Assembly (NCBI RefSeq): GCF_009931435.1
Contig: NZ_CP043414.1
DNA length: 64,000 nt
Strand: one strand, 5' to 3'
From: Escherichia coli
Lineage (GTDB): Bacteria > Pseudomonadota > Gammaproteobacteria > Enterobacterales > Enterobacteriaceae
Shown here: piece by piece, positions 1 to 16,222 of the stretch
How positions within the stretch are numbered: position 1 is the stretch's first letter
Layout: each line of letters opens with the position of its first letter
Translations under genes and position numbers: made by a program
The notes under the pieces: generated by a model
What the model saw: only the letters and a program-made list of their open reading frames with translations
The model's database searches: none
What the model was told of the DNA's origin: nothing

Positions 1-799
1 CCAGCACCGCCAGTACCGCCGAGGCGCGAGCCAGCTGCTGGTTAAGCATTTTTTGCAGATGCGGTTGCCCGGCTTCATTTGGCCCAGGGGTATCCAGTAA
101 CGTCAACTGACCGGGATAACTCTCCAGCCCCGCCAGATGGACAAACTCCACTTCAATCACGGGAATATGCTCAATGGCGGCGTAAGCAGAAAAAGGAAAA
201 TCGACGTCCAGCGCCTTCGCCAGTCGCACCAAATCATTCAAACTTTTCAGACAATGAAAAATAGGCTGGGCACCCAGATAATATTTTTCGAAAGCGACGC
301 CATTTTCGATCCGCTGCATAAGCGCACGCATATCTTTATCTATTTCCAGCACATCGGTCAGATGCTTAATATCGCAGTCACGCAGGCGCTGTTGTAATTG
401 TTGAATTAAACAGTCGATTGGCGCGACATGTGAAAAATGCAGTACCGGTTCTTTTTGCCCGGGCGTATGACGAATAAGCGTCGGCAGCGCAGTCATTGGG
501 CGATTGCGATTAGGCAGAACCTCCGTACCAACAATGGCATTAATGGTGGTTGATTTCCCTGCTTTCATAGTACCGACAATCGCCAGCACCATTTCCAGTC
601 GGGAAATTTTACGCAACTCATTATTCAGCATCGCGTGACGTTCGGCGATATTAGGCTGACTCCAGGGTAAAGCCAGTTGTGGCGCATCGTCTCCGGGTAC
701 AGAGAGAGGCATTTTTTCCAGTAACTGCAACTGTTGGCGAGAAAGCTGTAACAGGCGTTCAGCCTCCTGACTTAACTCATACAGGGTCTGTGTGTACAT
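1..799 (-). CDS. crfC: Dynamin-like GTPase CrfC (YjdA), N-terminal part; the gene continues beyond the window start
   Basis: Uninterrupted minus-strand frame from ATG (complement of 797-799) to position 1. My translation begins MYTQTLYELSQEAERLLQLSRQQLQ and contains the P-loop GTMKAGKSTT. Absent from the ORF track because no stop lies in the window. Divergent from phnA. Confidence 0.75.
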   Translation of the reverse strand, partial: MYTQTLYELSQEAERLLQLSRQQLQLLEKMPLSVPGDDAPQLALPWSQPNIAERHAMLNNELRKISRLEMVLAIVGTMKAGKSTTINAIVGTEVLPNRNRPMTALPTLIRHTPGQKEPVLHFSHVAPIDCLIQQLQQRLRDCDIKHLTDVLEIDKDMRALMQRIENGVAFEKYYLGAQPIFHCLKSLNDLVRLAKALDVDFPFSAYAAIEHIPVIEVEFVHLAGLESYPGQLTLLDTPGPNEAGQPHLQKMLNQQLARASAVLAVL

Positions 800-1200
800 A
801 GAAAATTTTTCCTTAAAGCAAATTTTATTACTTTTATTTAGCCAGATTGTTTTTGAGTTCTGTTTTCGGCTTTTATAATTACTGCAAGAAATAATTTTAT
901 ATTTAGAGTGTTGTTTTTTATTAGAATAAATAACGTCTTCCGATACGTTTAAAACGTCAGAAAGATAAAAATATCATTTGAATTAAAAAAAGAACAAGTA
1001 GAGCATTAACCTTATCTTAAATAATAAATGGAGGCAAAAAGATTATTTTCTTTTTGCGTTTCCTTTCAAATGAAAACGATCGTCGTCTAAAATCAGCAGT
1101 ACCCCCGACAAACTCAGGGATTTTGTGTATAATTGCGGCCTTTTTCGGCAATCTGCCGTTTTTTGGCGCTTTTGCCCTGCTGACTTTTGAGGAAATCCAC

Positions 1201-1536
1201 ATGTCATTACCACACTGCCCAAAATGCAACTCCGAATACACCTACGAAGATAACGGCATGTACATCTGCCCGGAATGTGCCTACGAATGGAACGACGTAG
1301 AACCTGCACAGGAAAGCGACGAGCTGATCGTTAAAGATGCTAACGGCAATCTGCTGGCTGACGGCGACAGCGTTACCATCATTAAAGATCTGAAGGTGAA
1401 AGGTAGCTCTTCGATGCTGAAGATCGGTACCAAAGTGAAAAACATTCGCCTGGTTGAAGGCGACCACAACATCGATTGCAAAATCGACGGTTTTGGTCCG
1501 ATGAAACTGAAATCTGAGTTTGTGAAAAAGAACTGA
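1201..1536 (+). CDS. phnA: PhnA (YjdM), zinc-ribbon protein, 111 aa
   Basis: ORF track 1054..1536; first ATG at 1201 gives [30 protein letters not shown] with two CxxC pairs, matching the PhnA family. Confidence 0.9.
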
Positions 1537-1564
1537 TTGTATTGCTCAATGTAATATTGGCACA

Positions 1565-1712
1565 TGATCGGTAGGCCGGATAAGGCGCTCGCGCCGCATC
1601 CGGCTACGGTGCCGACTGCCTGATGCGACGCTCGCGCGTCTTATCAGGCCTACAAATTCTCGCACCATCCGGCAACGGTGCCTAATGCGACGCTTACCGA
1701 GTCTTATCAGCC
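1565..1712. repeat. REP/BIME cluster (about three REP units) between phnA and phnB
   Basis: Repeated GCCGGATAAGGCGC / GCCTGATGCGACGC palindromic units in alternating orientation. Confidence 0.8.
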
Positions 1713-1775
1713 CCCGCTCATCTGTATAATTTTCGAACTACACTTAACTGGCTTCTCTTAACTGAGGTCACCATC

Positions 1776-2219
1776 ATGCCGTTAAGTCCCTACCTCTCTT
1801 TTGCTGGTAACTGTTCCGATGCGATTGCCTATTATCAACGCACGTTGGGCGCGGAACTGCTTTATAAAATCAGCTTCGGCGAAATGCCGAAATCAGCGCA
1901 GGACAGCGCCGAGAACTGCCCTTCCGGAATGCAATTTCCCGATACCGCCATCGCTCATGCCAACGTGCGCATTGCCGGAAGCGACATCATGATGAGCGAT
2001 GCCATACCGTCAGGAAAAGCCAGCTACTCCGGCTTTACGCTGGTACTCGATTCGCAACAGGTCGAAGAAGGAAAACGCTGGTTTGACAACCTTGCCGCTA
2101 ACGGAAAAATCGAAATGGCCTGGCAGGAAACTTTCTGGGCGCATGGCTTCGGCAAAGTCACCGATAAATTTGGCGTACCGTGGATGATTAATGTCGTCAA
2201 ACAACAACCAACGCACTAA
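1776..2219 (+). CDS. phnB: PhnB (YjdN), glyoxalase/bleomycin-resistance fold protein, 147 aa
   Basis: ORF track 1776..2219; translation matches the PhnB family. Confidence 0.85.
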   Translation: MPLSPYLSFAGNCSDAIAYYQRTLGAELLYKISFGEMPKSAQDSAENCPSGMQFPDTAIAHANVRIAGSDIMMSDAIPSGKASYSGFTLVLDSQQVEEGKRWFDNLAANGKIEMAWQETFWAHGFGKVTDKFGVPWMINVVKQQPTH

Positions 2220-2245
2220 CCCGCCGGGAGGCCCGCCCTCCCGCA

Positions 2246-2307
2246 CTGTCATCGAATTCCCGTTAACTCTTCATCTGTTAGTCACTTTTAGTTAACAAAA
2301 TCGTCAC
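2246..2307 (+). promoter_or_regulatory. Putative Pho box / PhoB-dependent promoter region of the phnC operon
   Basis: CTGTCAT at 2246-2252 and CTGTTAG-TCAC-TTTTAGT-TAAC-AAAATCG-TCAC at 2275-2307 resemble 7-bp PhoB half-sites with 4-bp spacers, 45-100 bp upstream of the phnC ATG. Exact site boundaries uncertain. Confidence 0.45.
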
Positions 2308-2351
2308 GATAATCCGCCACGATGGAGCCACTTTTTTAGGGAGGCTGCATC

Positions 2352-3140
2352 ATGCAAACGATTATCCGCGTCGAACAACTGAGCAAAACCTTCAATCAGC
2401 ATCAGGCGCTGCACGCGGTTGATCTGAACATTCATCACGGTGAAATGGTGGCTCTGCTTGGGCCGTCGGGTTCCGGCAAATCCACCCTTTTACGTCACTT
2501 AAGCGGCCTGATTGTCGGCGATAAAAAGCCAGAATGCCGCGTCGAACTGCTGGGCCGCACCGTCCAGCAAAATGGCCGCCTGGCCCGCGATATCCGCAAA
2601 AGCCGCGCCAACACCGGCTACATCTTCCAACAATTCAACCTGGTGAATCGCCTGAGCGTACTGGAGAACGTGCTGATTGGCGCGCTCGGCAGCACGCCGT
2701 TCTGGCGTACCTGTTTTAGCTGGTTCACCCGCGAGCAGAAACAGCGTGCGTTACAGGCACTGACTCGCGTTGGGATGGTGCACTTTGCCCATCAGCGCGT
2801 TTCCACGCTCTCCGGCGGCCAGCAGCAGCGTGTGGCGATAGCCCGTGCGCTGATGCAGCAGGCGAAGGTGATTCTGGCCGATGAACCCATCGCCTCGCTG
2901 GACCCGGAATCGGCCCGCATCGTGATGGATACCCTGCGCGACATCAACCAGAACGACGGCATCACCGTGGTGGTGACGCTGCATCAGGTGGATTACGCCC
3001 TGCGCTACTGCGAACGCATCGTCGCCCTGCGCCAGGGGCACGTCTTCTACGACGGCAGCAGCCAACAGTTTGATAACGAACGTTTTGACCATCTCTACCG
3101 CAGCATTAACCGCGTCGAAGAGAACGCGAAAGCTGCCTGA
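2352..3140 (+). CDS. phnC: Phosphonate ABC transporter ATP-binding protein, 262 aa
   Basis: ORF track; Walker [10 protein letters not shown] and ABC signature LSGGQQQR. Confidence 0.95.
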
Positions 3141-3164
3141 CATCCCCATCATTGAGGAAAACGA

Positions 3165-4181
3165 ATGAACGCTAAGATAATTGCCTCGCTGGCCTTCACC
3201 AGCATGTTCAGCCTCAGCACCCTGTTCAGCCCGGCACACGCCGAAGAGCAGGAAAAGGCGCTGAATTTCGGCATTATTTCAACGGAATCACAGCAAAACC
3301 TGAAACCGCAATGGACGCCTTTCCTGCAAGATATGGAGAAGAAACTGGGCGTAAAGGTCAACGCCTTCTTTGCTCCGGACTACGCGGGCATTATCCAGGG
3401 GATGCGCTTCAATAAAGTGGATATCGCCTGGTACGGCAATCTGTCGGCGATGGAAGCGGTGGATCGCGCCAACGGTCAGGTCTTCGCCCAGACGGTCGCG
3501 GCGGATGGATCGCCGGGTTACTGGAGCGTGTTGATCGTCAACAAAGACAGTCCGATCAACAACCTGAACGATCTGCTGGCGAAGCGTAAAGATCTCACCT
3601 TTGGCAATGGCGATCCTAACTCCACCTCTGGCTTCCTCGTCCCCGGCTACTACGTCTTCGCCAAAAACAATATCTCCGCCAGCGACTTCAAGCGCACCGT
3701 CAACGCCGGGCATGAAACCAACGCGCTGGCCGTCGCCAACAAGCAGGTGGATGTGGCGACCAACAACACCGAGAACCTCGACAAGCTGAAAACCTCCGCA
3801 CCGGAGAAGCTCAAAGAACTGAAGGTGATCTGGAAATCGCCGCTGATCCCAGGCGATCCGATCGTCTGGCGCAAAAATCTTTCCGAAACCACCAAAGACA
3901 AGATCTACGACTTCTTTATGAACTACGGCAAAACGCCGGAAGAGAAAGCGGTGCTGGAGCGCCTGGGCTGGGCCCCGTTCCGCGCCTCCAGCGACCTGCA
4001 ACTGGTGCCAATTCGCCAGCTCGCGCTGTTTAAAGAGATGCAGGGCGTGAAAGGCAATAAGGGACTGAATGAGCAGGACAAGCTGGCAAAAACCACCGCC
4101 ATTCAGGCGCAACTGGATGATTTGGACCGCCTGAACAACGCGTTAAGCGCAATGAGTTCGGTGAGTAAAGCGGTGCAGTAA
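3165..4181 (+). CDS. phnD: Periplasmic phosphonate-binding protein, 338 aa
   Basis: ORF track; signal-peptide-like N-terminus ending AHA; fits the PhnD family and operon position. Confidence 0.95.
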   Translation: MNAKIIASLAFTSMFSLSTLFSPAHAEEQEKALNFGIISTESQQNLKPQWTPFLQDMEKKLGVKVNAFFAPDYAGIIQGMRFNKVDIAWYGNLSAMEAVDRANGQVFAQTVAADGSPGYWSVLIVNKDSPINNLNDLLAKRKDLTFGNGDPNSTSGFLVPGYYVFAKNNISASDFKRTVNAGHETNALAVANKQVDVATNNTENLDKLKTSAPEKLKELKVIWKSPLIPGDPIVWRKNLSETTKDKIYDFFMNYGKTPEEKAVLERLGWAPFRASSDLQLVPIRQLALFKEMQGVKGNKGLNEQDKLAKTTAIQAQLDDLDRLNNALSAMSSVSKAVQ

Positions 4182-4195
4182 TGTGCTCGATCGGT

Positions 4196-4294
4196 CCCCT
4201 CTCCCTTGAGGGAGAGGGTTAGGGTGAGGGGGGAAATACGCACGCTGATGCCCTCACCCCGGCCCTCTCCTACAGGGAGAGGGAGAAAACATTA
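4196..4294. repeat. GC-rich inverted pair of boxC-like palindromic units in the phnD-phnE spacer
   Basis: CCCTCTCCC-TTGA-GGGAGAGGG-TTAGGGTGAGGGG followed by its near reverse complement GCCCTCACCCCGGCCCTCTCC-TACA-GGGAGAGGG. Confidence 0.7.
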
Positions 4295-4307
4295 AACGGA
4301 GCCAAAC

Positions 4308-5087
4308 ATGCAAACCATCACCATCGCCCCACCCAAGCGCAGCTGGTTCTCGATCTTCAGCTGGGCCGTTGTTCTCGCCGTACTGGTCGTCTCGTGGCAG
4401 GGCGCGGAAATGGCCCCGCTCACGCTGATTAAAGACGGCGGCAACATGGCGACGTTCGCCGCCGACTTCTTCCCGCCCGATTTCAGCCAGTGGCAGGATT
4501 ACCTCACCGAAATGGCCGTCACGCTGCAAATCGCCGTCTGGGGCACTGCGCTGGCAGTCGTTCTCTCCATCCCCTTCGGCCTGATGAGCGCCGAAAACCT
4601 GGTGCCGTGGTGGGTTTACCAGCCCGTTCGCCGCCTGATGGACGCCTGCCGCGCCATTAACGAGATGGTCTTCGCCATGCTGTTCGTGGTCGCCGTCGGT
4701 CTCGGTCCGTTCGCTGGCGTACTGGCGCTGTTTATCCACACCACCGGCGTGCTCTCCAAACTGCTTTCCGAAGCGGTAGAAGCAATTGAACCCGGCCCGG
4801 TGGAAGGTATTCGCGCCACTGGTGCCAACAAGCTCGAAGAGATCCTCTATGGCGTGCTGCCGCAGGTGATGCCGCTGCTGATCTCCTACTCCCTCTATCG
4901 CTTCGAATCCAACGTCCGTTCGGCCACCGTTGTTGGCATGGTCGGCGCTGGCGGGATCGGCGTCACGCTGTGGGAAGCGATTCGCGGTTTCCAGTTCCAG
5001 CAAACCTGCGCCCTGATGGTGCTGATTATCGTCACGGTCAGCCTGCTGGATTTCCTCTCTCAACGGTTGCGTAAGCACTTTATCTGA
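4308..5087 (+). CDS. phnE: Phosphonate ABC transporter permease, intact 259-aa frame
   Basis: Single uninterrupted ORF in the track (4308..5087); binding-protein-dependent permease features. Confidence 0.9.
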
Positions 5088-5107
5088 TAAGCGAGGCATT
5101 GATAGCT

Positions 5108-5833
5108 ATGCACTTGTCTACACATCCGACCAGCTACCCAACACGCTATCAGGAGATAGCCGCAAAACTTGAGCAGGAGCTTCGTCAACACTACCGCTGC
5201 GGCGACTATCTTCCCGCCGAGCATCAACTGGCGGCACGCTTTGAGGTGAATCGCCACACCCTGCGCCGCGCCATCGACCAACTGGTGGAAAAAGGCTGGG
5301 TACAGCGCCGTCAGGGCGTCGGCGTGCTGGTGCTGATGCGCCCGTTCGATTACCCGCTCAACGCCCAGGCGCGTTTTAGCCAGAACCTGCTGGATCAGGG
5401 TAGCCATCCCACCAGCGAAAAACTGCTGTCGGTGCTGCGCCCGGCCTCCGGCCACGTCGCTGACGCGCTGGGGATAACCGAGGGCGAGAACGTTATCCAC
5501 CTGCGCACCCTGCGTCGGGTCAACGGCGTCGCACTCTGTTTAATCGACCACTACTTTGCGGACCTCACTCTCTGGCCGACGCTGCAACGCTTCGACAGCG
5601 GCTCGCTGCACGATTTTTTGCACGAGCAAACGGGAATTGCGCTGCGCCGCAGCCAGACGCGGATCAGCGCCCGCCGCGCCCAGGCCAAAGAGTGCCAGCG
5701 TCTTGAAATTCCGAATATGTCGCCGCTGCTGTGCGTGCGCACCCTTAACCACCGTGACGGTGAAAGCAGCCCGGCGGAGTACTCCGTCAGCCTGACGCGC
5801 GCCGACATGATTGAATTCACCATGGAGCACTGA
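5108..5833 (+). CDS. phnF: GntR-family transcriptional regulator of the phn operon, 241 aa
   Basis: ORF track 5099..5833 starts at TTG; first ATG at 5108 gives MHLSTHPTSYPTRYQEIAAKLEQELR with a GntR-type HTH. Confidence 0.9.
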   Translation: MHLSTHPTSYPTRYQEIAAKLEQELRQHYRCGDYLPAEHQLAARFEVNRHTLRRAIDQLVEKGWVQRRQGVGVLVLMRPFDYPLNAQARFSQNLLDQGSHPTSEKLLSVLRPASGHVADALGITEGENVIHLRTLRRVNGVALCLIDHYFADLTLWPTLQRFDSGSLHDFLHEQTGIALRRSQTRISARRAQAKECQRLEIPNMSPLLCVRTLNHRDGESSPAEYSVSLTRADMIEFTMEH

Positions 5834-6286
5834 ATGCACGCAGATACCGCGACCCGCCAGCACTGGATGTCCGTGCTGGCGCACAGCCAACCGGCTGAAC
5901 TGGCTAACCGCCTTAAAGCGCTAAACATCACCGCCGACTATGACATGATCCGCGCCGCCGAAACCGGCCTGGTACAGATTCAGGCGCGAATGGGTGGCAC
6001 CGGCGAACGCTTTTTTGCTGGCGACGCTACGCTCACCCGCGCCGCTGTACGCCTTACTGACGGCACGCTCGGCTACAGCTGGGTGCTGGGGCGCGACAAA
6101 CAGCACGCCGAACGCTGCGCGCTGATTGACGCGCTGATGCAGCAATCTCGCCACTTTCAAAACTTATCAGAAACCCTTATTGCCCCGCTGGACGCTGACC
6201 GTATGGCACGCATTGCCGCACGCCAGGCCGAAGTGAACGCCAGTCGGGTCGACTTCTTTACGATGGTTCGCGGAGACAACGCATGA
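5834..6286 (+). CDS. phnG: C-P lyase core complex subunit PhnG, 150 aa
   Basis: ORF track; operon position; start immediately after the phnF stop. Confidence 0.9.
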
Positions 6287-6867
6287 CCCTGGAAACCGCT
6301 TTTATGCTTCCCGTGCAGGATGCCCAGCACAGTTTTCGTCGCCTGTTAAAGGCCATGAGCGAGCCGGGCGTGATTGTCGCCCTGCATCAACTCAAACGCG
6401 GCTGGCAGCCGCTGAATATCGCCACCACCAGCGTGCTGCTGACGCTGGCCGATAACGACACGCCGGTGTGGCTTTCTGCGCCATTAAGTAACGATATCGT
6501 CAGCCAGAGCCTGCGTTTTCATACCAACGCGCCGCTGGTCAATCAGCCGGAACAGGCGACCTTCGCAGTGACGGATGAGGCGATTGCCAGCGAGCAGCTC
6601 AACGCCCTTTCCATCGGCACCGCCGTTGCGCCGGAAGCCGGTGCGACGTTGATTTTACAGGTCACCAGCCTGAGCGGCGGACGCATGCTGCGCCTCACCG
6701 GCGCGGGTATTGCCGAAGAACGGATGATCGCCCCGCAACTGCCGGAGTGCATTCTGCACGAACTCACCGAGCGCCCGCACCCGTTCCCGCTCGGCATCGA
6801 CCTGATCCTGACCTGCGGCGAGCGCCTGCTGGCTATCCCGCGAACCACTCATGTGGAGGTGTGCTGA
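6283..6867 (+). CDS. phnH: C-P lyase core complex subunit PhnH, 194 aa
   Basis: ORF track; ATGA overlap with the phnG stop. Confidence 0.9.
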
Positions 6868-7931
6868 TGTACGTTGCCGTGAAAGGGGGCGAAAAGGCGA
6901 TCGACGCCGCCCACGCCCTGCAAGAGAGCCGACGCCGGGGCGATACTGATTTGCCTGAACTGAGCGTCGCCCAGATTGAACAGCAGCTTAATCTCGCGGT
7001 GGATCGCGTGATGACCGAAGGCGGCATTGCCGACCGTGAACTGGCGGCACTAGCGCTGAAACAGGCCAGCGGCGATAACGTTGAAGCGATTTTCCTGTTG
7101 CGCGCCTACCGCACGACGCTGGCAAAGCTGGCGGTGAGCGAGCCGCTCGACACCACCGAGATGCGGCTCGAACGCCGTATTTCGGCGGTTTATAAAGACA
7201 TTCCCGGCGGCCAGTTGCTTGGCCCGACCTACGACTACACCCATCGCCTGCTCGATTTCACCCTGCTGGCGAATGGCGAAGCGCCGACGCTGACCACCGC
7301 CGACAGCGAGCAAGCCCCATCGCCGCACGTTTTCAGCCTGCTGGCGCGTCAGGGGCTGGCGAAGTTTGAAGAGGATAGCGGCGCACAGCCGGACGACATC
7401 ACCCGCACGCCGCCGGTTTACCCCTGCTCACGTTCTTCCCGTTTGCAGCAGCTCATGCGCGGAGACGAAGGCTATTTGCTGGCGCTGGCCTACTCCACCC
7501 AGCGTGGTTACGGACGCAATCACCCGTTCGCAGGCGAAATCCGCAGTGGCTATATCGACGTGTCTATTGTGCCGGAAGAGCTGGGATTTGCGGTGAACAT
7601 CGGCGAACTGCTGATGACCGAGTGTGAAATGGTCAACGGTTTTATCGACCCGCCGGATGAGCCGCCGCACTTCACGCGCGGCTACGGGCTGGTGTTCGGC
7701 ATGAGCGAGCGCAAAGCGATGGCAATGGCGCTGGTTGACCGCGCTCTACAAGCCCCGGAGTACGGCGAGCACGCGACAGGCCCGGCGCAGGATGAAGAGT
7801 TCGTGCTGGCGCATGCCGACAACGTCGAAGCCGCAGGCTTTGTCTCGCACCTCAAACTCCCGCACTACGTCGATTTCCAGGCCGAACTGGAGCTACTCAA
7901 ACGTCTGCAACAGGAGCAGAACCATGGCTAA
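6867..7931 (+). CDS. phnI: C-P lyase core complex subunit PhnI, 354 aa
   Basis: ORF track frame 6747..7931; I place the start at ATG 6867 ([18 protein letters not shown]), overlapping the phnH stop by one base (TGATG). Confidence 0.9.
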   Translation: MYVAVKGGEKAIDAAHALQESRRRGDTDLPELSVAQIEQQLNLAVDRVMTEGGIADRELAALALKQASGDNVEAIFLLRAYRTTLAKLAVSEPLDTTEMRLERRISAVYKDIPGGQLLGPTYDYTHRLLDFTLLANGEAPTLTTADSEQAPSPHVFSLLARQGLAKFEEDSGAQPDDITRTPPVYPCSRSSRLQQLMRGDEGYLLALAYSTQRGYGRNHPFAGEIRSGYIDVSIVPEELGFAVNIGELLMTECEMVNGFIDPPDEPPHFTRGYGLVFGMSERKAMAMALVDRALQAPEYGEHATGPAQDEEFVLAHADNVEAAGFVSHLKLPHYVDFQAELELLKRLQQEQNHG

Positions 7932-8769
7932 TCTGAGCGGCTACAACTTTGCCTACCTCGACGAGCAGACCAAACGTATGATCCGCCGCGCCATCTTAAA
8001 AGCGGTGGCGATCCCCGGTTATCAGGTGCCGTTTGGCGGGCGCGAGATGCCGATGCCATACGGCTGGGGAACTGGTGGTATCCAGCTTACCGCCAGCGTG
8101 ATTGGCGAAAGCGACGTGTTGAAGGTGATTGACCAGGGCGCGGATGACACCACCAACGCCGTATCAATTCGCAACTTTTTCAAGCGCGTGACCGGGGTAA
8201 ACACCACTGAACGTACGGATGATGCGACGCTTATCCAGACGCGCCACCGCATCCCCGAAACGCCGCTGACCGAAGATCAGATCATTATTTTCCAGGTGCC
8301 GATCCCCGAACCGCTGCGCTTTATCGAGCCGCGCGAAACGGAGACCCGCACTATGCACGCGCTGGAGGAGTACGGCGTGATGCAGGTGAAACTGTATGAA
8401 GATATCGCCCGCTTCGGTCATATCGCCACCACCTACGCCTATCCGGTGAAGGTGAACGGACGCTACGTAATGGACCCATCGCCGATCCCGAAATTTGATA
8501 ACCCGAAAATGGACATGATGCCCGCCCTGCAACTGTTTGGCGCGGGGCGCGAGAAGCGTATTTATGCGGTGCCGCCGTTTACCCGCGTGGAAAGCCTCGA
8601 TTTCGACGATCATCCGTTCACCGTTCAGCAGTGGGATGAACCCTGCGCCATCTGCGGATCGACCCACAGCTATCTCGATGAAGTGGTGCTGGATGACGCC
8701 GGAAACCGCATGTTTGTCTGTTCCGATACCGATTATTGCCGCCAACAGAGCGAGGCGAAAAGCCAATGA
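7924..8769 (+). CDS. phnJ: C-P bond-cleaving enzyme PhnJ, 281 aa
   Basis: ORF track frame 7735..8769; start at ATG 7924 (MANLSGYNFAYLDEQTKRMIRRAILKAV); C-terminal cysteine cluster CAICGS..C..C. Confidence 0.9.
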   Translation: MANLSGYNFAYLDEQTKRMIRRAILKAVAIPGYQVPFGGREMPMPYGWGTGGIQLTASVIGESDVLKVIDQGADDTTNAVSIRNFFKRVTGVNTTERTDDATLIQTRHRIPETPLTEDQIIIFQVPIPEPLRFIEPRETETRTMHALEEYGVMQVKLYEDIARFGHIATTYAYPVKVNGRYVMDPSPIPKFDNPKMDMMPALQLFGAGREKRIYAVPPFTRVESLDFDDHPFTVQQWDEPCAICGSTHSYLDEVVLDDAGNRMFVCSDTDYCRQQSEAKSQ

Positions 8770-9524
8770 ATCAACCGTTACTTTCGGTCAATAACCTGAC
8801 CCACCTCTACGCACCGGGCAAAGGCTTCAGCGACGTTTCTTTTGATTTATGGCCGGGGGAAGTGCTGGGCATCGTCGGGGAATCCGGTTCCGGGAAGACC
8901 ACGCTGCTGAAATCAATCTCCGCGCGCCTGACGCCGCAGCAGGGGGAGATTCGCTATGAAAACCGTTCCCTCTATGGCATGAGCGAAGCCGACCGCCGCC
9001 GTTTACTGCGCACCGAATGGGGCGTGGTACATCAGCATCCGCTCGACGGCCTGCGTCGCCAGGTCTCGGCAGGCGGCAATATCGGCGAACGGCTGATGGC
9101 GACCGGGGCGCGTCATTACGGCGATATTCGCGCCACCGCGCAGAAGTGGCTGGAAGAGGTGGAGATTCCCGCCAACCGGATCGACGACCTGCCGACCACT
9201 TTTTCCGGCGGTATGCAGCAGCGTTTGCAGATTGCCCGCAACCTGGTGACGCATCCGAAGCTGGTGTTTATGGATGAACCGACCGGCGGGCTGGATGTAT
9301 CAGTGCAAGCGCGCCTGCTCGATCTGCTGCGCGGTCTGGTGGTGGAGCTGAACCTGGCGGTGGTGATTGTCACCCACGATCTGGGCGTCGCCCGCCTGCT
9401 GGCGGACCGTTTGCTGGTGATGAAGCAAGGGCAAGTGGTGGAGAGTGGGTTAACCGACCGCGTGCTCGACGACCCGCATCACCCGTATACCCAGCTGCTG
9501 GTGTCATCGGTTTTGCAGAATTGA
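8766..9524 (+). CDS. phnK: ABC-type ATPase PhnK, 252 aa
   Basis: ORF track frame 8736..9524; start at ATG 8766 (MNQPLLSVNNLTHLY); Walker A GESGSGKTT. Confidence 0.9.
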   Translation: MNQPLLSVNNLTHLYAPGKGFSDVSFDLWPGEVLGIVGESGSGKTTLLKSISARLTPQQGEIRYENRSLYGMSEADRRRLLRTEWGVVHQHPLDGLRRQVSAGGNIGERLMATGARHYGDIRATAQKWLEEVEIPANRIDDLPTTFSGGMQQRLQIARNLVTHPKLVFMDEPTGGLDVSVQARLLDLLRGLVVELNLAVVIVTHDLGVARLLADRLLVMKQGQVVESGLTDRVLDDPHHPYTQLLVSSVLQN

Positions 9525-9529
9525 GCCTT

Positions 9530-9690
9530 GCTTGTGTCGGGTGGCGCTGCGCTTACCCGACCTACGGTACATGTAGGCCGGATAAGGCGTAGCCGCCATC
9601 CGGCTTATCAGGCCTACAAAACCATCGTAATACATTGATATTGATTCATTTGTAGGCCGGATAAGGCGCAGCCGCCATCCGGCAAAAACA
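9530..9690. repeat. REP/BIME cluster inside the phn operon, between phnK and phnL
   Basis: GTAGGCCGGATAAGGCG(T/C)AGCCGCCATCCGGC units in inverted orientation. Confidence 0.8.
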
Positions 9691-9703
9691 CGAAGAGGCC
9701 AAA

Positions 9704-10384
9704 ATGATCCGCGTCGAAAACGTCAGTAAAACCTTCATCCTGCACCAACAAAACGGCGTGCGCCTGCCCGTCTTACAACGCGCCTCGCTCACCGTCAACG
9801 CGGGCGAATGCGTGGTGCTCCACGGCCATTCCGGCAGCGGCAAATCAACCCTGCTGCGCTCGCTGTACGCTAACTATCTGCCCGACGAAGGGCAAATTCA
9901 GATCAAACATGGTGACGAGTGGGTAGACCTGGTCACCGCGCCAGCGCGCAAAGTGGTGGAAATCCGCAAAACCACCGTCGGCTGGGTGAGCCAGTTTCTG
10001 CGGGTCATCCCGCGTATTTCGGCGCTGGAAGTGGTAATGCAGCCGCTGCTCGATACCGGCGTTCCGCGTGAAGCCTGCGCCGCTAAAGCCGCCCGTCTGC
10101 TCACCCGCCTGAACGTGCCGGAACGTCTGTGGCACCTGGCGCCATCGACCTTCTCCGGCGGCGAACAGCAGCGCGTCAACATCGCGCGCGGCTTTATCGT
10201 CGATTACCCCATTCTGCTGCTCGACGAACCTACTGCCTCGCTGGACGCCAAAAACAGCGCCGCGGTGGTGGAACTGATCCGCGAAGCTAAAACCCGCGGC
10301 GCAGCCATCGTCGGCATCTTCCACGACGAAGCCGTACGCAATGACGTCGCCGACCGCCTCCACCCAATGGGAGCCTCTGCATGA
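9704..10384 (+). CDS. phnL: ABC-type ATPase PhnL, 226 aa
   Basis: ORF track; Walker [10 protein letters not shown]. Confidence 0.9.
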
Positions 10385-11517
10385 TTATCAATAACGTCAA
10401 ACTGGTGCTGGAAAACGAAGTGGTACACGGTTCGCTGGAGGTGCAGGACGGCGAAATTCGCGCCTTTGCCGAAAGCCAGAGCCGCCTGCCAGAAGCGATG
10501 GACGGCGAAGGTGGCTGGCTGCTGCCGGGGCTGATTGAGCTGCATACCGACAACCTCGATAAATTCTTCACTCCGCGCCCGAAAGTGGACTGGCCTGCCC
10601 ACTCAGCGATGAGCAGCCACGACGCGCTGATGGTGGCGAGCGGCATCACCACGGTGCTGGATGCCGTGGCGATTGGCGACGTGCGCGACGGCGGCGATCG
10701 GCTGGAGAATCTGGAGAAGATGATCAACGCCATCGAAGAGACGCAGAAACGCGGGGTCAACCGCGCCGAGCACCGTCTGCACCTGCGCTGTGAACTGCCG
10801 CATCACACTACGCTGCCGCTGTTTGAAAAACTGGTGCAGCGCGAGCCGGTCACGCTGGTGTCGCTGATGGACCACTCGCCGGGCCAGCGCCAGTTCGCCA
10901 ATCGCGAGAAGTATCGCGAATATTACCAGGGCAAATACTCGCTCACCGATGCGCAGATGCAGCAGTACGAAGAGGAACAACTGGCGCTTGCCGCACGCTG
11001 GTCGCAGCCGAATCGCGAAACCATCGCCGCAATATGCCGCGCGCGACAAATTGCCCTCGCCAGCCACGATGATGCTACGCACGAGCACGTTGCCGAATCC
11101 CACCAGCTTGGCAGCGTAATCGCCGAATTTCCCACCACGTTCGAAGCGGCGGAAGCTTCGCGCAAGCATGGCATGAATGTATTGATGGGCGCGCCGAATA
11201 TTGTGCGCGGCGGTTCGCACTCCGGCAACGTGGCGGCAAGCGAACTGGCACAGCTTGGCCTGCTGGATATCCTCTCTTCCGACTACTACCCCGCCAGCCT
11301 GCTCGATGCGGCATTTCGCGTCGCCGATGACGAGAGCAACCGCTTTACGCTGCCGCAGGCGGTGAAGCTGGTGACTAAAAATCCGGCGCAGGCGCTTAAT
11401 CTTCAGGATCGCGGGGTGATTGGCGAGGGCAAACGCGCCGACCTGGTGCTGGCGCATCGCAAGGGCAACCACATTCATATCGATCACGTCTGGCGTCAGG
11501 GTAAAAGGGTGTTCTGA
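10381..11517 (+). CDS. phnM: Amidohydrolase-family phosphonate metabolism enzyme PhnM, 378 aa
   Basis: ORF track; ATGA overlap with phnL; metal-dependent hydrolase family. Confidence 0.9.
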
Positions 11518-12074
11518 TGACGGGAAAACTGATTTGGTTAATGGGGGCCTCTGGCTCCGGAAAAGACAGTCTGTTGACGGAACTCCGCCAGCGGGAACAA
11601 ACTCAGCTACTGGTAGCGCATCGCTACATCACGCGCGCCGCCAGCGCCGGAAGTGAAAACCATATCGCCCTGAGCGAGCAGGAGTTTTTTACCCGCGCGG
11701 GGCAGAACCTTCTGGCCTTAAGCTGGCACGCCAACGGCCTGTATTATGGCATCGGCGTCGAGATTGACCTCTGGCTACACGCCGGATTCGACGTGGTGGT
11801 CAACGGCTCACGCGCGCATTTGCCGCAGGCGCGGGCGCGCTATCAATCGGCTCTGCTGCCTATCTGTTTACAGGTGTCACCGGAGATCCTGCGCCAGCGT
11901 CTGGAAAACCGTGGTCGTGAAAATGCCAGTGAAATTAACGCCCGGCTGGCGCGCGCTGCCCGCTATACTCCTCAGGATTGTCTTACGCTCAATAATGACG
12001 GCAGCCTGCGCCAGTCGGTCGACAAGCTGCTGACGCTGATTCATCAGAAGGAGAAACACCATGCCTGCTTGTGA
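11517..12074 (+). CDS. phnN: Ribose 1,5-bisphosphate phosphokinase PhnN, 185 aa
   Basis: ORF track; P-loop [14 protein letters not shown] overlap with phnM. Confidence 0.9.
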
Positions 12075-12495
12075 GCTTCGTCCGGCCACGCAGTACGACA
12101 CCGACGCGGTTTACGCGCTGATTTGTGAGCTAAAACAGGCGGAGTTTGACCACCATGCGTTTCGCGTGGGCTTTAACGCCAACCTGCGCGACCCGAACAT
12201 GCGCTACCATCTGGCGCTGCTGGAAGGCGAAGTTGTCGGCATGATCGGCCTGCATTTGCAGTTTCATCTGCATCATGTCAACTGGATCGGCGAAATTCAG
12301 GAACTGGTGGTGATGCCGCAGGCGCGCGGTCTGAACGTCGGCAGTAAATTACTGGCATGGGCCGAAGAAGAAGCCCGCCAGGCCGGGGCCGAAATGACCG
12401 AGCTTTCCACCAACGTCAAGCGCCACGACGCGCACCGTTTCTATCTGCGCGAAGGCTACGAGCAGAGCCACTTCCGCTTCACCAAGGCGCTGTAA
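12061..12495 (+). CDS. phnO: Aminoalkylphosphonate N-acetyltransferase PhnO (GNAT family), 144 aa
   Basis: ORF track; 14-nt overlap with the phnN 3' end. Confidence 0.9.
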
Positions 12496-12496
12496 C

Positions 12497-13255
12497 ATGA
12501 GCCTGACCCTCACACTTACTGGCACTGGCGGCGCACAGGGTGTTCCCGCATGGGGCTGTGAGTGCGCGGCCTGCGCCAGAGCGCGGCGCTCACCGCAGTA
12601 TCGCCGCCAGCCATGCAGCGGCGTCGTGAAGTTTAACGACGCGATCACCCTGATCGACGCCGGACTGCACGATCTCGCCGATCGCTGGTCGCCCGGATCG
12701 TTCCAGCAGTTTTTGCTGACGCACTACCATATGGATCACGTGCAGGGGCTGTTTCCGCTGCGCTGGGGCGTGGGCGATTCGATCCCGGTCTACGGCCCGC
12801 CGGATGAACAGGGCTGCGACGATCTGTTTAAACATCCGGGCCTGCTTGATTTCAGCCACACGGTGGAGCCATTTGTGATGTTTGATTTGCAGGGATTACA
12901 GGTCACGCCGCTGCCGCTCAACCATTCGAAACTCACTTTCGGCTATCTACTGGAAACGGCACATAGCCGGGTGGCGTGGCTGTCTGACACCGCAGGCCTG
13001 CCGGAAAAAACGGTGAAATTTTTATGCAATAATCAGCCACAGGTAATGGTGATTGATTGCTGCCACCCACCGCGCGCGAATTCGCCACGCAATCACTGTG
13101 ATTTAAACACCGTGCTGGCGCTGAATGAAGTTATCCGCTCGCCGTGCGTGGTTCTGACACATATCAGCCATCAGTTTGATGCGTGGCTGATGGAGAACAT
13201 ACTGCCGTCAGGGTTTGAGGCGGGGTTTGATGGGATGGAGATTGGGGTGGAGTGA
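12497..13255 (+). CDS. phnP: Metallo-beta-lactamase-fold phosphodiesterase PhnP, 252 aa
   Basis: ORF track; HxHxDH motif (HYHMDH). Confidence 0.9.
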
Positions 13256-13289
13256 TGGGTGAGGGGCGATGCCTGCTCTAAACTCAACA

Positions 13290-13598
13290 TCACCGCCCAT
13301 ACTCATCTTCCATTCTCCGCTCTTCATCTTCTAGCTGCCGACGCTCCTGATCCAGCTGGCGCTGGCGATCGTCCAGCTGCCTGCGGCGATCTTCATATTG
13401 TCTGCGCCGATCGTCGTTCACTTCACGCTGCCAGCCGTCGTCGCGCCAATCTTCATAGTCTCGCCCACGGTCAGGGTTATAAGCATCGTTAATCGCCTGC
13501 TGAATATTGCCAATGGTGTCGTCGATAATATCGGCCTGGGCCGGAACGGTGGACAGCGTGAGCAGGGTGAATAAAAGAAATAGCGGAAAACGTTTCAT
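13290..13598 (-). CDS. yjdP: Small secreted protein YjdP, 102 aa, with a highly charged R/D/E/Q-rich C-terminal half
   Basis: ORF track; signal-peptide-like N-terminus MKRFPLFLLFTLLTLSTVPAQA, then low-complexity RRRQ/DDRQR repeats. Confidence 0.7.
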   Translation of the reverse strand: MKRFPLFLLFTLLTLSTVPAQADIIDDTIGNIQQAINDAYNPDRGRDYEDWRDDGWQREVNDDRRRQYEDRRRQLDDRQRQLDQERRQLEDEERRMEDEYGR

Positions 13599-13666
13599 TA
13601 GCCAACCTCAAAAAGAAACTCTATCCACATTAGTCATTACTCATCCATGCAAGTAGTGGATGAATC

Positions 13667-13984
13667 TCAATTTTTCCGCTGCTCTATTGCCGTAATCGCC
13701 TCCACGCGTTGTTGATGACGACCGCCTTCGTACTGCGCGCCCAGCCACGCATCCACAATCATTTTTGCCAGTTCGAGGCCAACCACTCGTGAACCAAAAG
13801 CCAGTGCAACTTCACTGGCGTAATGCGGATAATCAGTGCGCTCTGACGACCTGGTTTCTTTATCAATCCCCTCACTCATTGACCATGAATAAAAGGCTGG
13901 CACAGCAACGCAGAATCCTGCGGTGCCAGCGACATGACCGCCCATTGCTCCGGTACGTTTTTTAATAAGAAACACCGGTTGCAT
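13667..13984 (-). pseudogene. rpiB: rpiB-derived remnant: chimeric 105-codon ORF whose C-terminal part matches ribose-5-phosphate isomerase B but which lacks the central third of the protein
   Basis: Translation contains SSERTDYPHYASEVALA joined directly to FGSRVVGLELAKMIVDAWLGAQYEGGRHQQRVEAITAIEQRKN (RpiB-like), preceded by ~40 residues that do not resemble the RpiB N-terminus as I recall it. Confidence 0.6.
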
Positions 13985-14236
13985 TGATTAATTGTGCTCA
14001 GTATTTGCCGAAGTACAATATATATAATAAATATATAAAACACCTCATATTATTTACAGAGATAATAAATTCGCGTACTTTTCCCTCTTCAGCACAAATG
14101 CCTAATAAAATGGCTCGTTCCGCTCACACTTCCACTTATTAAAATCGCAATTTCCCAATTATGATAACGCCAGCTTTAAATGACGTATTTTGCATGGATT
14201 ACATATTTACGACACAAATGATAAATGGAGATTTAT

Positions 14237-16222
14237 ATGAATAACTCTCGGTTATTCCGTTTGAGCAGGATTGTTATTGCGTTAACTGCCGCCAGCGGCA
14301 TGATGGTAAATACCGCTCACGCAACAGATGAAGCGAAAGCCGCCACTCAATATACCCAACAGGTTAATCAGAATTACGCCAAATCATTACCGTTTAGCGA
14401 TCGTCAGGATTTTGACGATGCCCAGCGCGGATTTATCGCCCCGCTGCTGGATGAAGGTATTCTGCGCGATGCGAATGGCAAAGTTTACTACCGCGCGAAT
14501 GATTACAAATTTGATATTAATGCCGCTGCGCCGGAAACCGTAAACCCCAGCCTGTGGCGTCAGTCGCAGATCAACGGCATTTCTGGTCTGTTCAAAGTCA
14601 CCGATAAAATGTATCAGGTGCGCGGCCAGGATATCTCTAACATTACATTCGTTGAGGGCGAGAAAGGCATTATTGTTATCGACCCACTGGTGACGCCGCC
14701 TGCCGCAAAAGCCGCACTTGACCTTTACTTCCAGCATCGTCCGCAAAAACCGATTGTTGCTGTTATTTACACCCACAGCCACGCCGACCATTATGGCGGT
14801 GTGAAAGGCATTATCTCTGAAGCGGATGTTAAATCTGGCAAAGTGCAGGTGATCGCTCCGGCAGGCTTTATGGACGAAGCCATCAGCGAAAACGTGCTGG
14901 CGGGTAACATCATGAGCCGCCGTGCGCTCTACTCTTACGGTCTGTTACTGCCGCACAACGCGCAAGGCAACGTGGGCAACGGCCTGGGCGTGACGCTGGC
15001 AACGGGCGACCCGAGCATTATTGCGCCAACCAAAACGATTGTCAGAACTGGCGAGAAGATGATTATCGACGGCCTGGAGTTTGACTTCCTGATGACTCCG
15101 GGTAGCGAAGCGCCAGCCGAAATGCACTTCTATATTCCGGCCCTGAAAGCCCTGTGTACCGCCGAAAACGCCACGCATACCCTGCACAACTTCTACACCC
15201 TGCGCGGCGCGAAAACCCGCGATACCAGCAAGTGGACAGAGTATCTGAACGAAACGCTGGATATGTGGGGTAACGACGCGGAAGTACTGTTTATGCCGCA
15301 CACCTGGCCGGTCTGGGGCAATAAGCATATCAATGATTATATTGGTAAATATCGCGATACTATCAAATACATTCACGACCAGACCCTGCACCTGGCGAAC
15401 CAGGGTTACACCATGAATGAAATTGGCGACATGATTAAGCTGCCACCTGCGCTTGCCAATAACTGGGCCAGCCGCGGCTATTACGGTTCTGTTAGCCACA
15501 ACGCCCGTGCAGTGTATAACTTCTATCTCGGCTATTATGACGGCAATCCAGCTAACCTACATCCGTACGGTCAGGTGGAGATGGGCAAACGTTACGTGAA
15601 AGCGCTGGGCGGTTCCGCCCGTGTCATCAACCTGGCGCAAGAAGCGAACAAGCAAGGGGATTACCGCTGGTCAGCAGAGTTGCTGAAACAGGTGATTGCC
15701 GCCAATCCGGGTGACCAGGTGGCGAAGAATCTGCAAGCGAATAACTTTGAACAGCTGGGCTATCAGGCCGAGTCCGCCACCTGGCGCGGTTTCTACCTGA
15801 CCGGCGCAAAAGAGCTGCGCGAAGGGGTGCATAAGTTCAGCCACGGCACCACGGGTTCTCCGGACACCCTTCGCGGGATGTCGGTCGAAATGCTGTTCGA
15901 CTTTATGGCCGTTCGCCTCGATAGCGCGAAAGCCGCAGGTAAGAATATCAGCCTGAACTTCAATATGAGCAACGGCGATAACCTCAACCTGACGCTGAAC
16001 GATAGCGTGCTTAACTACCGTAAAACGCTGCAACCTGAAGCCAACGCCTCTTTCTACATCAGCCGTGAAGATCTTCACGCCGTGCTGACCGGACAAGCCA
16101 AAATGGCGGATCTGGTAAAAGCGAAGAAAGCCAAAATTATTGGCAATGGCGCGAAACTGGAAGAAATTATTGCCTGTCTGGATAATTTCGATTTGTGGGT
16201 GAATATCGTAACCCCAAATTAA
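14237..16222 (+). CDS. yjcS: Metallo-beta-lactamase-fold alkyl/aryl-sulfatase family protein YjcS, 661 aa
   Basis: ORF track 14225..16222; start placed at ATG 14237 ([21 protein letters not shown], signal peptide); HSHADH motif. Confidence 0.85.

Follow-up and report, generated by a model that had tools for sequence, protein, structure and literature searches.

Do the overlapping stop and start codons of the E. coli phn genes couple the translation of neighbouring cistrons, and is the stoichiometry of the C-P lyase complex the reason for this packing? The question is raised by a stretch of 64,000 nt of the E. coli contig NZ_CP043414.1, here called the window. Its initial annotation proposed that overlaps from phnG to phnP serve stoichiometric co-translation of the complex, with a REP spacer between phnK and phnL as the only break.

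Gene Order and Junctions

A script run on the window located 14 intact ORFs, phnCDEFGHIJKLMNOP, at 2352-13255 on the plus strand of this Escherichia coli strain. They are fourteen co-directional homologues of the K-12 genes phnC to phnP, as in a canonical E. coli-type C-P lyase (phn) operon. The nucleotide identity to K-12 is 92-97% per gene, and PhnJ and PhnL are near-identical to chains of PDB 7z15. Positions 5000-14000 are matched in 5409 of 5426 E. coli genomes, and the genes annotated beneath this match are phnF to phnP. The genes and the junctions, with overlaps as negative distances, are as follows.

phnC, 2352-3140, + strand: transporter gene; spacer to phnD +24 nt
phnD, 3165-4181, + strand: transporter gene; spacer to phnE +126 nt
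phnE, 4308-5087, + strand: transporter gene, intact, 259 aa; spacer to phnF +20 nt
phnF, 5108-5833, + strand: regulator; stop codon TGA directly against the ATG of phnG (gap 0 nt, TGAATG)
phnG, 5834-6286, + strand: 150 aa; C-P lyase core subunit
phnH, 6283-6867, + strand: 194 aa; 4-nt overlap with phnG (-4, ATGA, 6283-6286); SD motif GGAG within phnG, -6.6 kcal/mol
phnI, 6867-7931, + strand: 354 aa; 1-nt overlap with phnH (-1, TGATG, 6865-6869); SD motif GGAGG, -10.6 kcal/mol
phnJ, 7924-8769, + strand: 281 aa; 8-nt overlap with phnI (-8, ATGGCTAA, 7924-7931)
phnK, 8766-9524, + strand: 252 aa; 4-nt overlap with phnJ (-4, ATGA, 8766-8769)
phnK-phnL spacer, 9525-9703, + strand: 179 nt (+179); REP array
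phnL, 9704-10384, + strand: 226 aa; behind the spacer; own SD motif (GAGG)
phnM, 10381-11517, + strand: 378 aa; 4-nt overlap with phnL (-4, ATGA, 10381-10384)
phnN, 11517-12074, + strand: 185 aa; 1-nt overlap with phnM (-1, TGATG, 11515-11519)
phnO, 12061-12495, + strand: 144 aa; 14-nt overlap with phnN (-14, ATGCCTGCTTGTGA, 12061-12074)
phnP, 12497-13255, + strand: 252 aa; 1 nt past the phnO stop codon (+1, TAA C ATG)

The eight tight junctions named in the initial annotation, from G/H to O/P, are all exact. The zero-gap F/G junction was absent from that list, and the tight run reaches one gene further upstream. The transporter genes phnC, phnD, and phnE have spacers and no overlaps.

For coupled gene pairs, a stop-to-start distance of about -8 to +6 nt is expected. 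Eight of the ten junctions from F/G to O/P fall in this range, and the two outside it are N/O and K/L. Among E. coli co-directional pairs, 24% are found at -8 to +6 (PMC10666635). At this genome-wide rate, the binomial probability of at least eight in ten is P = 3e-4; if 40% is assumed for pairs within operons, it rises to P = 0.012. The packing of the phn junctions is tight beyond chance.

The junctions are already known: they stand in the reference annotation of an operon that ranks among the best studied in E. coli. The phn operon of K-12 MG1655 (b4106-b4092) shows the same gene order and gene lengths as the window, the same junctions from F/G to O/P (0, -4, -1, -8, -4, gap, -4, -1, -14, +1), and nearly identical junction sequences. 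The junction architecture is also identical in the closest genome, RMDEC465. Three differences from K-12 are seen. The K-L spacer is 110 nt in K-12 and 179 nt in the window, with a different REP arrangement; phnE is a pseudogene in K-12 and intact in the window; and phnN begins with ATGATG in K-12 and ATGACG in the window.

Shine-Dalgarno Motifs and Initiation Regions

At every tight junction, an SD motif lying within the upstream gene precedes the downstream start. The spacing is 5-9 nt at each of these nine starts. Eight of them have anti-SD duplex energies ranging from -5.5 to -10.6 kcal/mol, and the SD of the ninth, phnP, is the weakest in the series at -3.2 kcal/mol. Averaged over the ten starts from phnG to phnP (phnL included), the energy is -6.7 kcal/mol, compared with -2.8 kcal/mol for the 109 ATG triplets in the stretch, and none of 100,000 permutations was as low.

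The initiation regions behind the tight junctions are folded as strongly as random coding sequence (9.3 versus 10.0 kcal/mol), and those of phnD, phnE, and phnL are open (3-5 kcal/mol). The opening energy for phnL is 4.7 kcal/mol in a context of -70 to +40 and 6.9 kcal/mol with the whole spacer, against a background of about 10 kcal/mol. The contrast between the tight-junction genes and phnD, phnE, and phnL has the expected direction and is not significant for so few genes (Mann-Whitney P = 0.12). As a trend only, structured initiation regions were set aside as a signature of coupling.

Two Putative Coupled Trains

We consider it likely that the catabolic phn genes form two coupled trains, F-G-H-I-J-K and L-M-N-O-P, with phnL initiating independently. 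One mRNA from a promoter upstream of phnC would carry the region. A single 14-gene phn transcript is seen in RNA-seq of K-12 under phosphate starvation (PMC3734233). In the window, a search of 5000-13600 for sigma-70-like promoters found none (2.9 expected), and a candidate internal promoter is rejected both for the K-L spacer and for the rest of this range. Terminator-like sites are no more frequent there than expected by chance.

On this mRNA, each start from phnF to phnK and from phnL to phnP would be reached by way of the preceding stop codon, which it overlaps or abuts, with the SD inside the last codons of the previous gene. A ribosome ending one cistron could re-initiate at the adjacent start. 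Alternatively, the terminating ribosome might open a structured initiation region to a new ribosome. The REP-filled gap of 179 nt would be too long for re-initiation, and therefore phnL would begin from its own accessible ribosome-binding site.

The phn spacings of -8 to +1 are within the range for which experiments on native E. coli pairs demonstrated termination-reinitiation (PMC6728339, PMC10666635). In these pairs, coupling is seen at -4 and mostly lost by about +38 nt, and pairs that overlap or lie in the coupled range are 4.5-fold enriched for subunits of heteromeric complexes (PMC6728339, PMC10666635). The coupled pairs of these 2019 and 2023 studies share with phn the -4 and -1 stop/start overlaps, the SD within the upstream gene, and the enrichment among heteromeric-complex subunits. 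Their coupling was measured by reporters, whereas phn is known here from junction sequences. Besides, phn adds a -14 overlap, and half its tight junctions join non-complex enzymes. Overlap is no guarantee of coupling, because, of five native pairs with overlaps tested in E. coli, bioBF was uncoupled (PMC6728339). A literature search for coupling, ribosome profiling or N-terminal data on phn returned nothing relevant; as it gave no coupling test for these genes, we infer both the coupling itself and proportional synthesis as its benefit.

Translational coupling in phn is thus a plausible part of the original proposal, given the spacings, the embedded SD motifs, and the conserved tightness from phnG to phnK. 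When C-P lyase expression is re-engineered, for instance to degrade glyphosate or for structural studies, the native junctions should be preserved and phnL handled as a separately initiated gene.

Complex Stoichiometry and Ribosome Cover

The other part of the proposal, the stoichiometry of the complex as the reason for the overlaps, fails for L/M, M/N, N/O, O/P, and K/L. PhnM, PhnN, PhnO, and PhnP act as separate enzymes, and the junctions L/M, M/N, N/O, and O/P, which join them, are equally tight; the overlaps are not complex-specific. None of these four proteins occurs in any C-P lyase complex that has been purified or solved. The complex is Phn(GHIJKL)2, a 1:1 hetero-dodecamer (PMC9947105). 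Since PhnL is a 1:1 subunit of it, the K-L spacer parts two subunits that bind each other, and the stoichiometry argument would not predict a break between PhnK and PhnL. With non-complex enzymes equally overlapped and the subunit PhnL left outside, the benefit is not complex stoichiometry alone, and the plain reading is too narrow.

The junctions were also compared in 12 annotated loci, each from a different taxon, covering seven classes and including a haloarchaeon. Junctions at or below +6 nt make up 45 of 48 (94%) in the core from phnG to phnK and 16 of 19 after phnL, against 33 of 77 (43%) among other co-directional pairs of the same loci (Fisher P = 3e-9 for the core, P = 0.002 after phnL; both values are approximate, as the taxa are not phylogenetically independent and the starts come from automatic annotation).

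The tightness after phnL, among genes whose products are outside the complex, would also suit another explanation, in which the overlaps mainly maintain ribosome cover on a Pho-regulated mRNA that is long (about 11 kb) and weakly expressed. Rho-dependent termination and endonucleolytic decay would be avoided, and subunit matching would be a side effect. The lone long gap, K-L, is occupied by very stable hairpins, and structured RNA is a poor loading site for Rho. Insertions are polar on downstream genes, as the kan replacement of phnO is on phnP (PMC3463581), and read coverage in K-12 falls along the operon (PMC3734233). However, phnC, phnD, and phnE lie on the same mRNA with spacers of 20-126 nt, so full cover is not enforced, and tightness is most consistent at the junctions of the core complex, pointing to an extra complex-related pressure. 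Ribosome cover as the main role is possible but doubtful.

Conservation and Divergence of the Junctions

The overlaps could also be a neutral by-product of deletion bias and the easy origin of ATGA and TGATG, kept by descent with no role in expression. Across 1,695 prokaryotic species, co-directional genes are most often spaced by -4 or -1 nt (PMC10666635), and 30% of unrelated co-directional pairs in the 12 loci overlap too. Short overlaps with an embedded SD are the commonest layout of co-directional prokaryotic genes, and the importance of the phn case beyond confirmation is small.

Nevertheless, the difference between core junctions and neighbouring pairs of the same loci stands against a neutral origin, as does the SD motif embedded upstream of each start. 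The tight G-H-I-J-K junctions are kept in Proteobacteria, Actinobacteria, Deinococcota, Bacillota, and the haloarchaeon. The exact type of junction switches between taxa (ATGA, GTGA, TAATG, TGATG, ATGACTGA), and the tightness is retained. Between the window and K-12, 2.4% of sites differ in the junction windows (-24 to +17) and 5.5% elsewhere, a 2.3-fold lower divergence than in the remainder of the operon (P = 0.007, permutation 0.011). The neutral explanation is already disfavoured and distinctly unlikely.

Choice of Start Codons

The start codons used here equal those of K-12 MG1655 and those assigned by PGAP to RMDEC465, and in each gene the annotated codon outranks the other in-frame candidates in SD match. 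The initial choices of start codons are reliable. That the overlaps are annotation artefacts, with real initiation at downstream in-frame codons that leave ordinary spacers, is very improbable: phnG, phnH, phnI, phnJ, phnM, and phnN do have downstream candidates, such as ATG 6304 for phnH and ATG 11541 for phnN, but in the window the SD match of each is poorer than that of the annotated codon, and for phnK, phnO, and phnP no other start lies within 30 codons.

Downstream starts would also remove N-terminal motifs kept across seven classes, YVAVKGGE at residue 2 of PhnI, YNFAYLDE of PhnJ, and PLL of PhnK. The N-terminus MYVAVKGGE of PhnI is conserved across phyla. The proteins are present at full length in PDB chains: PhnJ is identical in length and N-terminus to 4xb6_D and 7z15_D, and PhnL matches 7z15_K in both. 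Residues 7-14 of PhnL correspond to a resolved functional hairpin (PMC9947105). His-tagged PhnO was expressed from the same ATGCCTGCTTGTGAG start in the study that characterised it as an acetyltransferase (PMC3463581).

Two exceptions are seen in the PGAP annotation, where phnJ of a Citrobacter plasmid and phnK of Martelella are set at downstream codons, leaving gaps of +46 nt at I/J and +52 nt at J/K, respectively. Both have an upstream GTG with a good SD, which restores the conserved N-termini and overlaps of -11 and -8, respectively. Based on these sequences, the two gaps are probably start miscalls.

The phnK-phnL Spacer

The spacer contains two 33-nt direct copies at 9572-9604 and 9651-9683 with 97% identity, and six inverted pairs, the features of REP/BIME elements; agreement with the REP consensus was assessed visually. 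Like REP/BIME elements in enterobacterial operons, it consists of clustered imperfect palindromes in alternating orientation between two cistrons, forms stable hairpins, and is hypervariable in content between strains. Its RNA has an MFE of -87.1 kcal/mol (z = -7.2). Among E. coli, the spacer measures 110 nt in most genomes, K-12 included, and otherwise 167 nt, about 176 nt, or, in the window, 179 nt. A scan of 1-16000 at the Rfam gathering threshold gave no match within the spacer. The only Rfam match in that range is naRNA4 at 1574-1650, outside the phn junction stretch.

When the window's spacer is folded at minimum free energy, the 5 nt just past the phnK stop codon are predicted to pair with the phnL SD. 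When the phnK stop region is held single-stranded, the opening energy of phnL falls by only 2.5 kcal/mol in the window variant and by -0.4 to -1.1 kcal/mol in K-12, RMDEC465, and Citrobacter. The closing helix between the phnK stop region and the phnL SD is predicted solely in the window's variant. Long-range coupling across the REP spacer was rejected as a general mechanism, the change in accessibility being small in all variants folded.

The spacer is indeed the sole gap from phnG to phnP, as the initial annotation had it. The break is not a matter of REP insertion alone, since other phyla, too, have their loosest junction at K/L: it is at or below +6 nt in 6 of 11 cases, compared with 45 of 48 for the core. 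It is usually non-overlapped (+3, +4, +8, +11, +33), which is unique in the block from phnG to phnM across phyla; Variovorax and Arthrobacter have a -4 overlap at K/L. K/L might be a conserved module boundary rather than a REP accident, with a pre-existing gap that was colonised by REP elements in enterobacteria. Such a boundary would free PhnL and the enzymes after it from coupling to the core train, and might set a strain-specific ratio of the core to PhnL and the accessory proteins, with the REP elements acting on mRNA decay or phnK termination; this scenario is rather unlikely. By a reading of sequences and folds, each of the four enterobacterial variants examined has a REP array that begins about 8-14 nt past the phnK stop codon.

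Junctions of the phn operon

The C-P lyase operon was located by homology and by the annotation of matched genomes:

2352–13255, + strand, whole phn operon (phnCDEFGHIJKLMNOP)

A megablast search with the region 5000–14000 gave matches in 5409 of the 5426 complete genomes of E. coli; the matched features are annotated as phnF to phnP. The closest genome is RMDEC465 (97.1%). The gene order phnC-D-E-F-G-H-I-J-K-L-M-N-O-P is annotated in both RMDEC465 and K-12 MG1655. Scripted extraction of reading frames and junctions gave 14 intact frames, and 5834–13255 corresponds exactly to the phnG start through the phnP stop.

Table. Junctions of the phn operon (negative, overlap in nt; positive, spacer in nt)
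C/D: +24
D/E: +126
E/F: +20
F/G: 0, TGAATG
G/H: -4, ATGA
H/I: -1, TGATG
I/J: -8, ATGGCTAA
J/K: -4, ATGA
K/L: +179
L/M: -4, ATGA
M/N: -1, TGATG
N/O: -14, ATGCCTGCTTGTGA
O/P: +1, TAA C ATG

The tight junctions are confirmed. All eight junctions named in the initial annotation were recovered exactly, and the phnK-phnL spacer is, as it claimed, the sole break, with no other gap within phnG–phnP. The F/G junction was absent from its list. Because phnF abuts phnG without a spacer, the tight run begins one gene earlier. The feature is already known, being the E. coli phn operon with reference-annotated junctions, and nothing is new in kind; short overlap is the layout that co-directional genes in prokaryotes most often have. 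What the analysis adds is minor: the G–K junctions are deeply conserved, K/L is consistently loose, and two starts in public records are probably miscalled.

The phnD-phnE spacer (4182–4307, 126 nt) contains G-rich palindromic repeats, CCCTCTCCCTTGAGGGAGAGGG ... CCCTCTCCTACAGGGAGAGGG, of another type than the REPs of the phnK-phnL spacer. At the phnN start (11517–11522), the window has ATGACG and K-12 has ATGATG, which offers two possible starts. Citrobacter phnN is annotated at the second-codon position (11501 of the plasmid locus L013), giving a +2 spacer, not a -1 overlap. In the window, the overlapping ATG is the only one available.

Start codons

The starts agree with the curated annotation of K-12 MG1655, where gene lengths and all junction distances are as in the window except the K-L gap (110 nt), and with the PGAP annotation of RMDEC465 (K-L gap 167 nt). 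A Shine-Dalgarno (SD)-like motif lies 4–9 nt before every start from phnG to phnP, and inside the upstream gene for all of them except phnL. The duplex energy with the 16S tail averages -6.7 kcal/mol at these starts, versus -2.8 kcal/mol at all 109 ATG triplets of the stretch; in 100,000 permutations the energy was never as low. Among all in-frame ATG, GTG and TTG codons between the opening of the ORF and +30 codons, the strongest SD belonged to the annotated start in 10 of 10 genes (phnG–phnP); phnK, phnO and phnP had no downstream alternative within this range.

PhnG–M were aligned with those of six distant loci. Conserved motifs are seen at the extreme N-termini of PhnI (YVAVKGGE, residue 2), PhnJ (YNFAYLDE, residue 7) and PhnK (PLL, residue 4), and downstream starts would remove conserved residues. 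PDB chains of PhnJ (281 aa; 4xb6, 7z15-19) and PhnL (226 aa; 7z15-16) are equal to the window's proteins in length and N-terminus. Residues 7–14 of PhnL form a resolved hairpin in contact with PhnK (PMC9947105). When the acetyltransferase was characterised, His-tagged PhnO was expressed with this phnO start sequence, ATGCCTGCTTGTGAG (PMC3463581).

Tightness and its conservation

In the count of Huber et al., 24% of the co-directional pairs in E. coli (707 of 2,987) lie within -8 to +6 (PMC10666635). Eight of the ten junctions from F/G to O/P are within this range (binomial P = 3e-4); under an assumed, not measured, within-operon rate of 40%, P is 0.012.

Other phn loci were collected by tblastn with PhnJ against a plasmid and chromid collection, and junctions were taken from existing annotation. 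The loci are from Sinorhizobium, Variovorax, Mesobacillus, Thermus, Natronorubrum (a haloarchaeon), Arthrobacter, Paracoccus, a Proteus plasmid, Martelella, Ruegeria and Citrobacter, and the window was added. The core junctions (G/H, H/I, I/J and J/K, window included) overlap in 41 of 48 cases and are ≤ +6 nt in 45, versus 23 and 33 of the 77 other co-directional annotated pairs at the same loci (Fisher P = 3e-9, with non-independent taxa and automatically annotated starts). Post-L junctions are ≤ +6 in 16 of 19 cases. Within the block, K/L stands out as the loosest junction (6/11 ≤ +6; P = 0.004 vs core).

Three core junctions exceed +6, including Citrobacter I/J (+46) and Martelella J/K (+52). 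The PGAP starts of this phnJ (L013, 8049) and this phnK (Martelella plasmid locus L011, 8890) leave out conserved residues at the N-terminus. Starting instead at GTG codons further upstream, each with a GGAGG motif (L013, 7992; L011, 8830), restores these residues and gives overlaps of -11 and -8, respectively. Both public records, from the Citrobacter freundii and Martelella plasmids, probably carry start miscalls.

The junction type varies by taxon (ATGA, GTGA, TAATG, TGATG, ATGACTGA, and longer overlaps in Thermus), yet tightness persists, which argues for selection on tightness and not simple inheritance. Compared with K-12, 42-nt windows at nine tight junctions differ at 2.4% of sites and the remainder of phnF–P at 5.5% (Fisher P = 0.007; permutation 0.011).

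Probable coupling and the stoichiometry reading

Termination-reinitiation coupling was shown for native E. coli pairs at spacings of -4, -1 and -8 (PMC6728339, PMC10666635; reviewed in PMC12548453). In tested pairs, spacing the genes by +14 nt cut it by 40–80%, and by +38 nt most or all of it was gone (PMC6728339, PMC10666635). By analogy, F-G-H-I-J-K should be translated as one coupled train and L-M-N-O-P as a second. Since our literature search found no study testing coupling in phn, we infer it from these pairs. Under phosphate starvation, K-12 produces a single 14-gene transcript with coverage falling along its length (RNA-seq, PMC3734233). No promoter-like sites were found in 5000–13600.

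The predicted cost of opening positions -15 to +6 averages 9.3 kcal/mol for tight-junction genes, like random coding positions (10.0), and is 4.4, 3.1 and 4.7 kcal/mol for the spaced phnD, phnE and phnL (P = 0.12, few genes). Such a pattern is expected if tight-junction genes depend on the ribosome arriving from upstream and the spaced ones initiate by themselves, although it is only a trend.

The initial annotation interpreted the tight junctions as stoichiometric co-translation of the C-P lyase complex, a plausible reading that is in part too specific. PhnG, PhnH, PhnI, PhnJ and PhnK do occur at 1:1 in the complex, and their genes meet at tight junctions. PhnM, PhnN, PhnO and PhnP are separate enzymes, yet the junctions of their genes are as tight as those of the core. 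None of these four is present in PhnGHIJ, Phn(GHIJ)2K or Phn(GHIJKL)2, the complexes purified or solved in one study (PMC9947105). The last of these, a hetero-dodecamer of 327 kDa that includes a double ABC dimer (PhnK2/PhnL2), is the functional form (PMC9947105). PhnL also takes part at 1:1 and contacts PhnK directly, yet it is encoded behind the 179-nt break. The stoichiometry reading is thus only partly right, and a benefit broader than complex stoichiometry alone fits better. Candidates are proportional synthesis of the whole pathway and unbroken ribosome cover of the long mRNA, countering polarity.

The phnK-phnL spacer

The REP-filled spacer (9525–9703) contains two 33-nt direct repeats (9572–9604 and 9651–9683, 97% identity) and six inverted pairs, and folds at -87.1 kcal/mol (z = -7.2). 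Among the window, RMDEC465 and K-12, the coding flanks align and the spacer interior is rearranged. Its length varies in E. coli: most genomes of a spread sample share the 110 nt of K-12, RMDEC465 has 167, a few have about 176 and the window has 179; only RMDEC465, among 5,426 genomes, covers at least 80% of the window's version. The Citrobacter spacer is 89 nt long and also REP-bearing. In sequences and folds of all four variants, the first visible REP stem begins about 8–14 nt past the phnK stop. REPs can stabilise upstream mRNA, and those near a stop codon are reported to lower upstream translation.

In the window's MFE fold, the bases directly after the phnK stop pair with the phnL SD, and long-range coupling was therefore tested. 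With the phnK stop region held single-stranded, phnL accessibility shifts by 2.5 kcal/mol in the window; for the remaining three variants the shift is -0.4 to -1.1. This coupling was rejected.

Divergence of the allele and flanking sequences

The phn genes are 92–97% identical to those of K-12. Against 5,426 E. coli genomes, the best match of the phn segment is 97%, with the majority in the 90–95% band; the adjacent 24 kb (14000–38000) shows 95–99% identity to 5,424 records (best match 98.5%). Given this lower identity relative to the flank, the phn allele of this strain is unusually divergent, and is possibly a recombinant segment. phnE is intact (259 aa) in the window and annotated as a pseudogene in K-12.

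Flanking features are as follows:

13667–13984, - strand, rpiB homologue (105-aa ORF; 149 aa in K-12)
14225–16222, + strand, yjcS, almost directly beyond the rpiB homologue
1574–1650, + strand, naRNA4/CssrE (RF02564; Rfam, full length, 99.2 bits vs gathering score 59.5)

The alignment with K-12 stops within the rpiB homologue, at 13804, and the K-12 sequence beyond rpiB, the als genes, appears to be absent from the window. In RMDEC465, IS621 (IS110 family) lies between yjdM and yjdN (565–1545 of its locus, L001); the window (about 1650) is without the insertion. The naRNA4 match, an RNA derived from a REP element, is located in the same yjdM-yjdN intergenic region.
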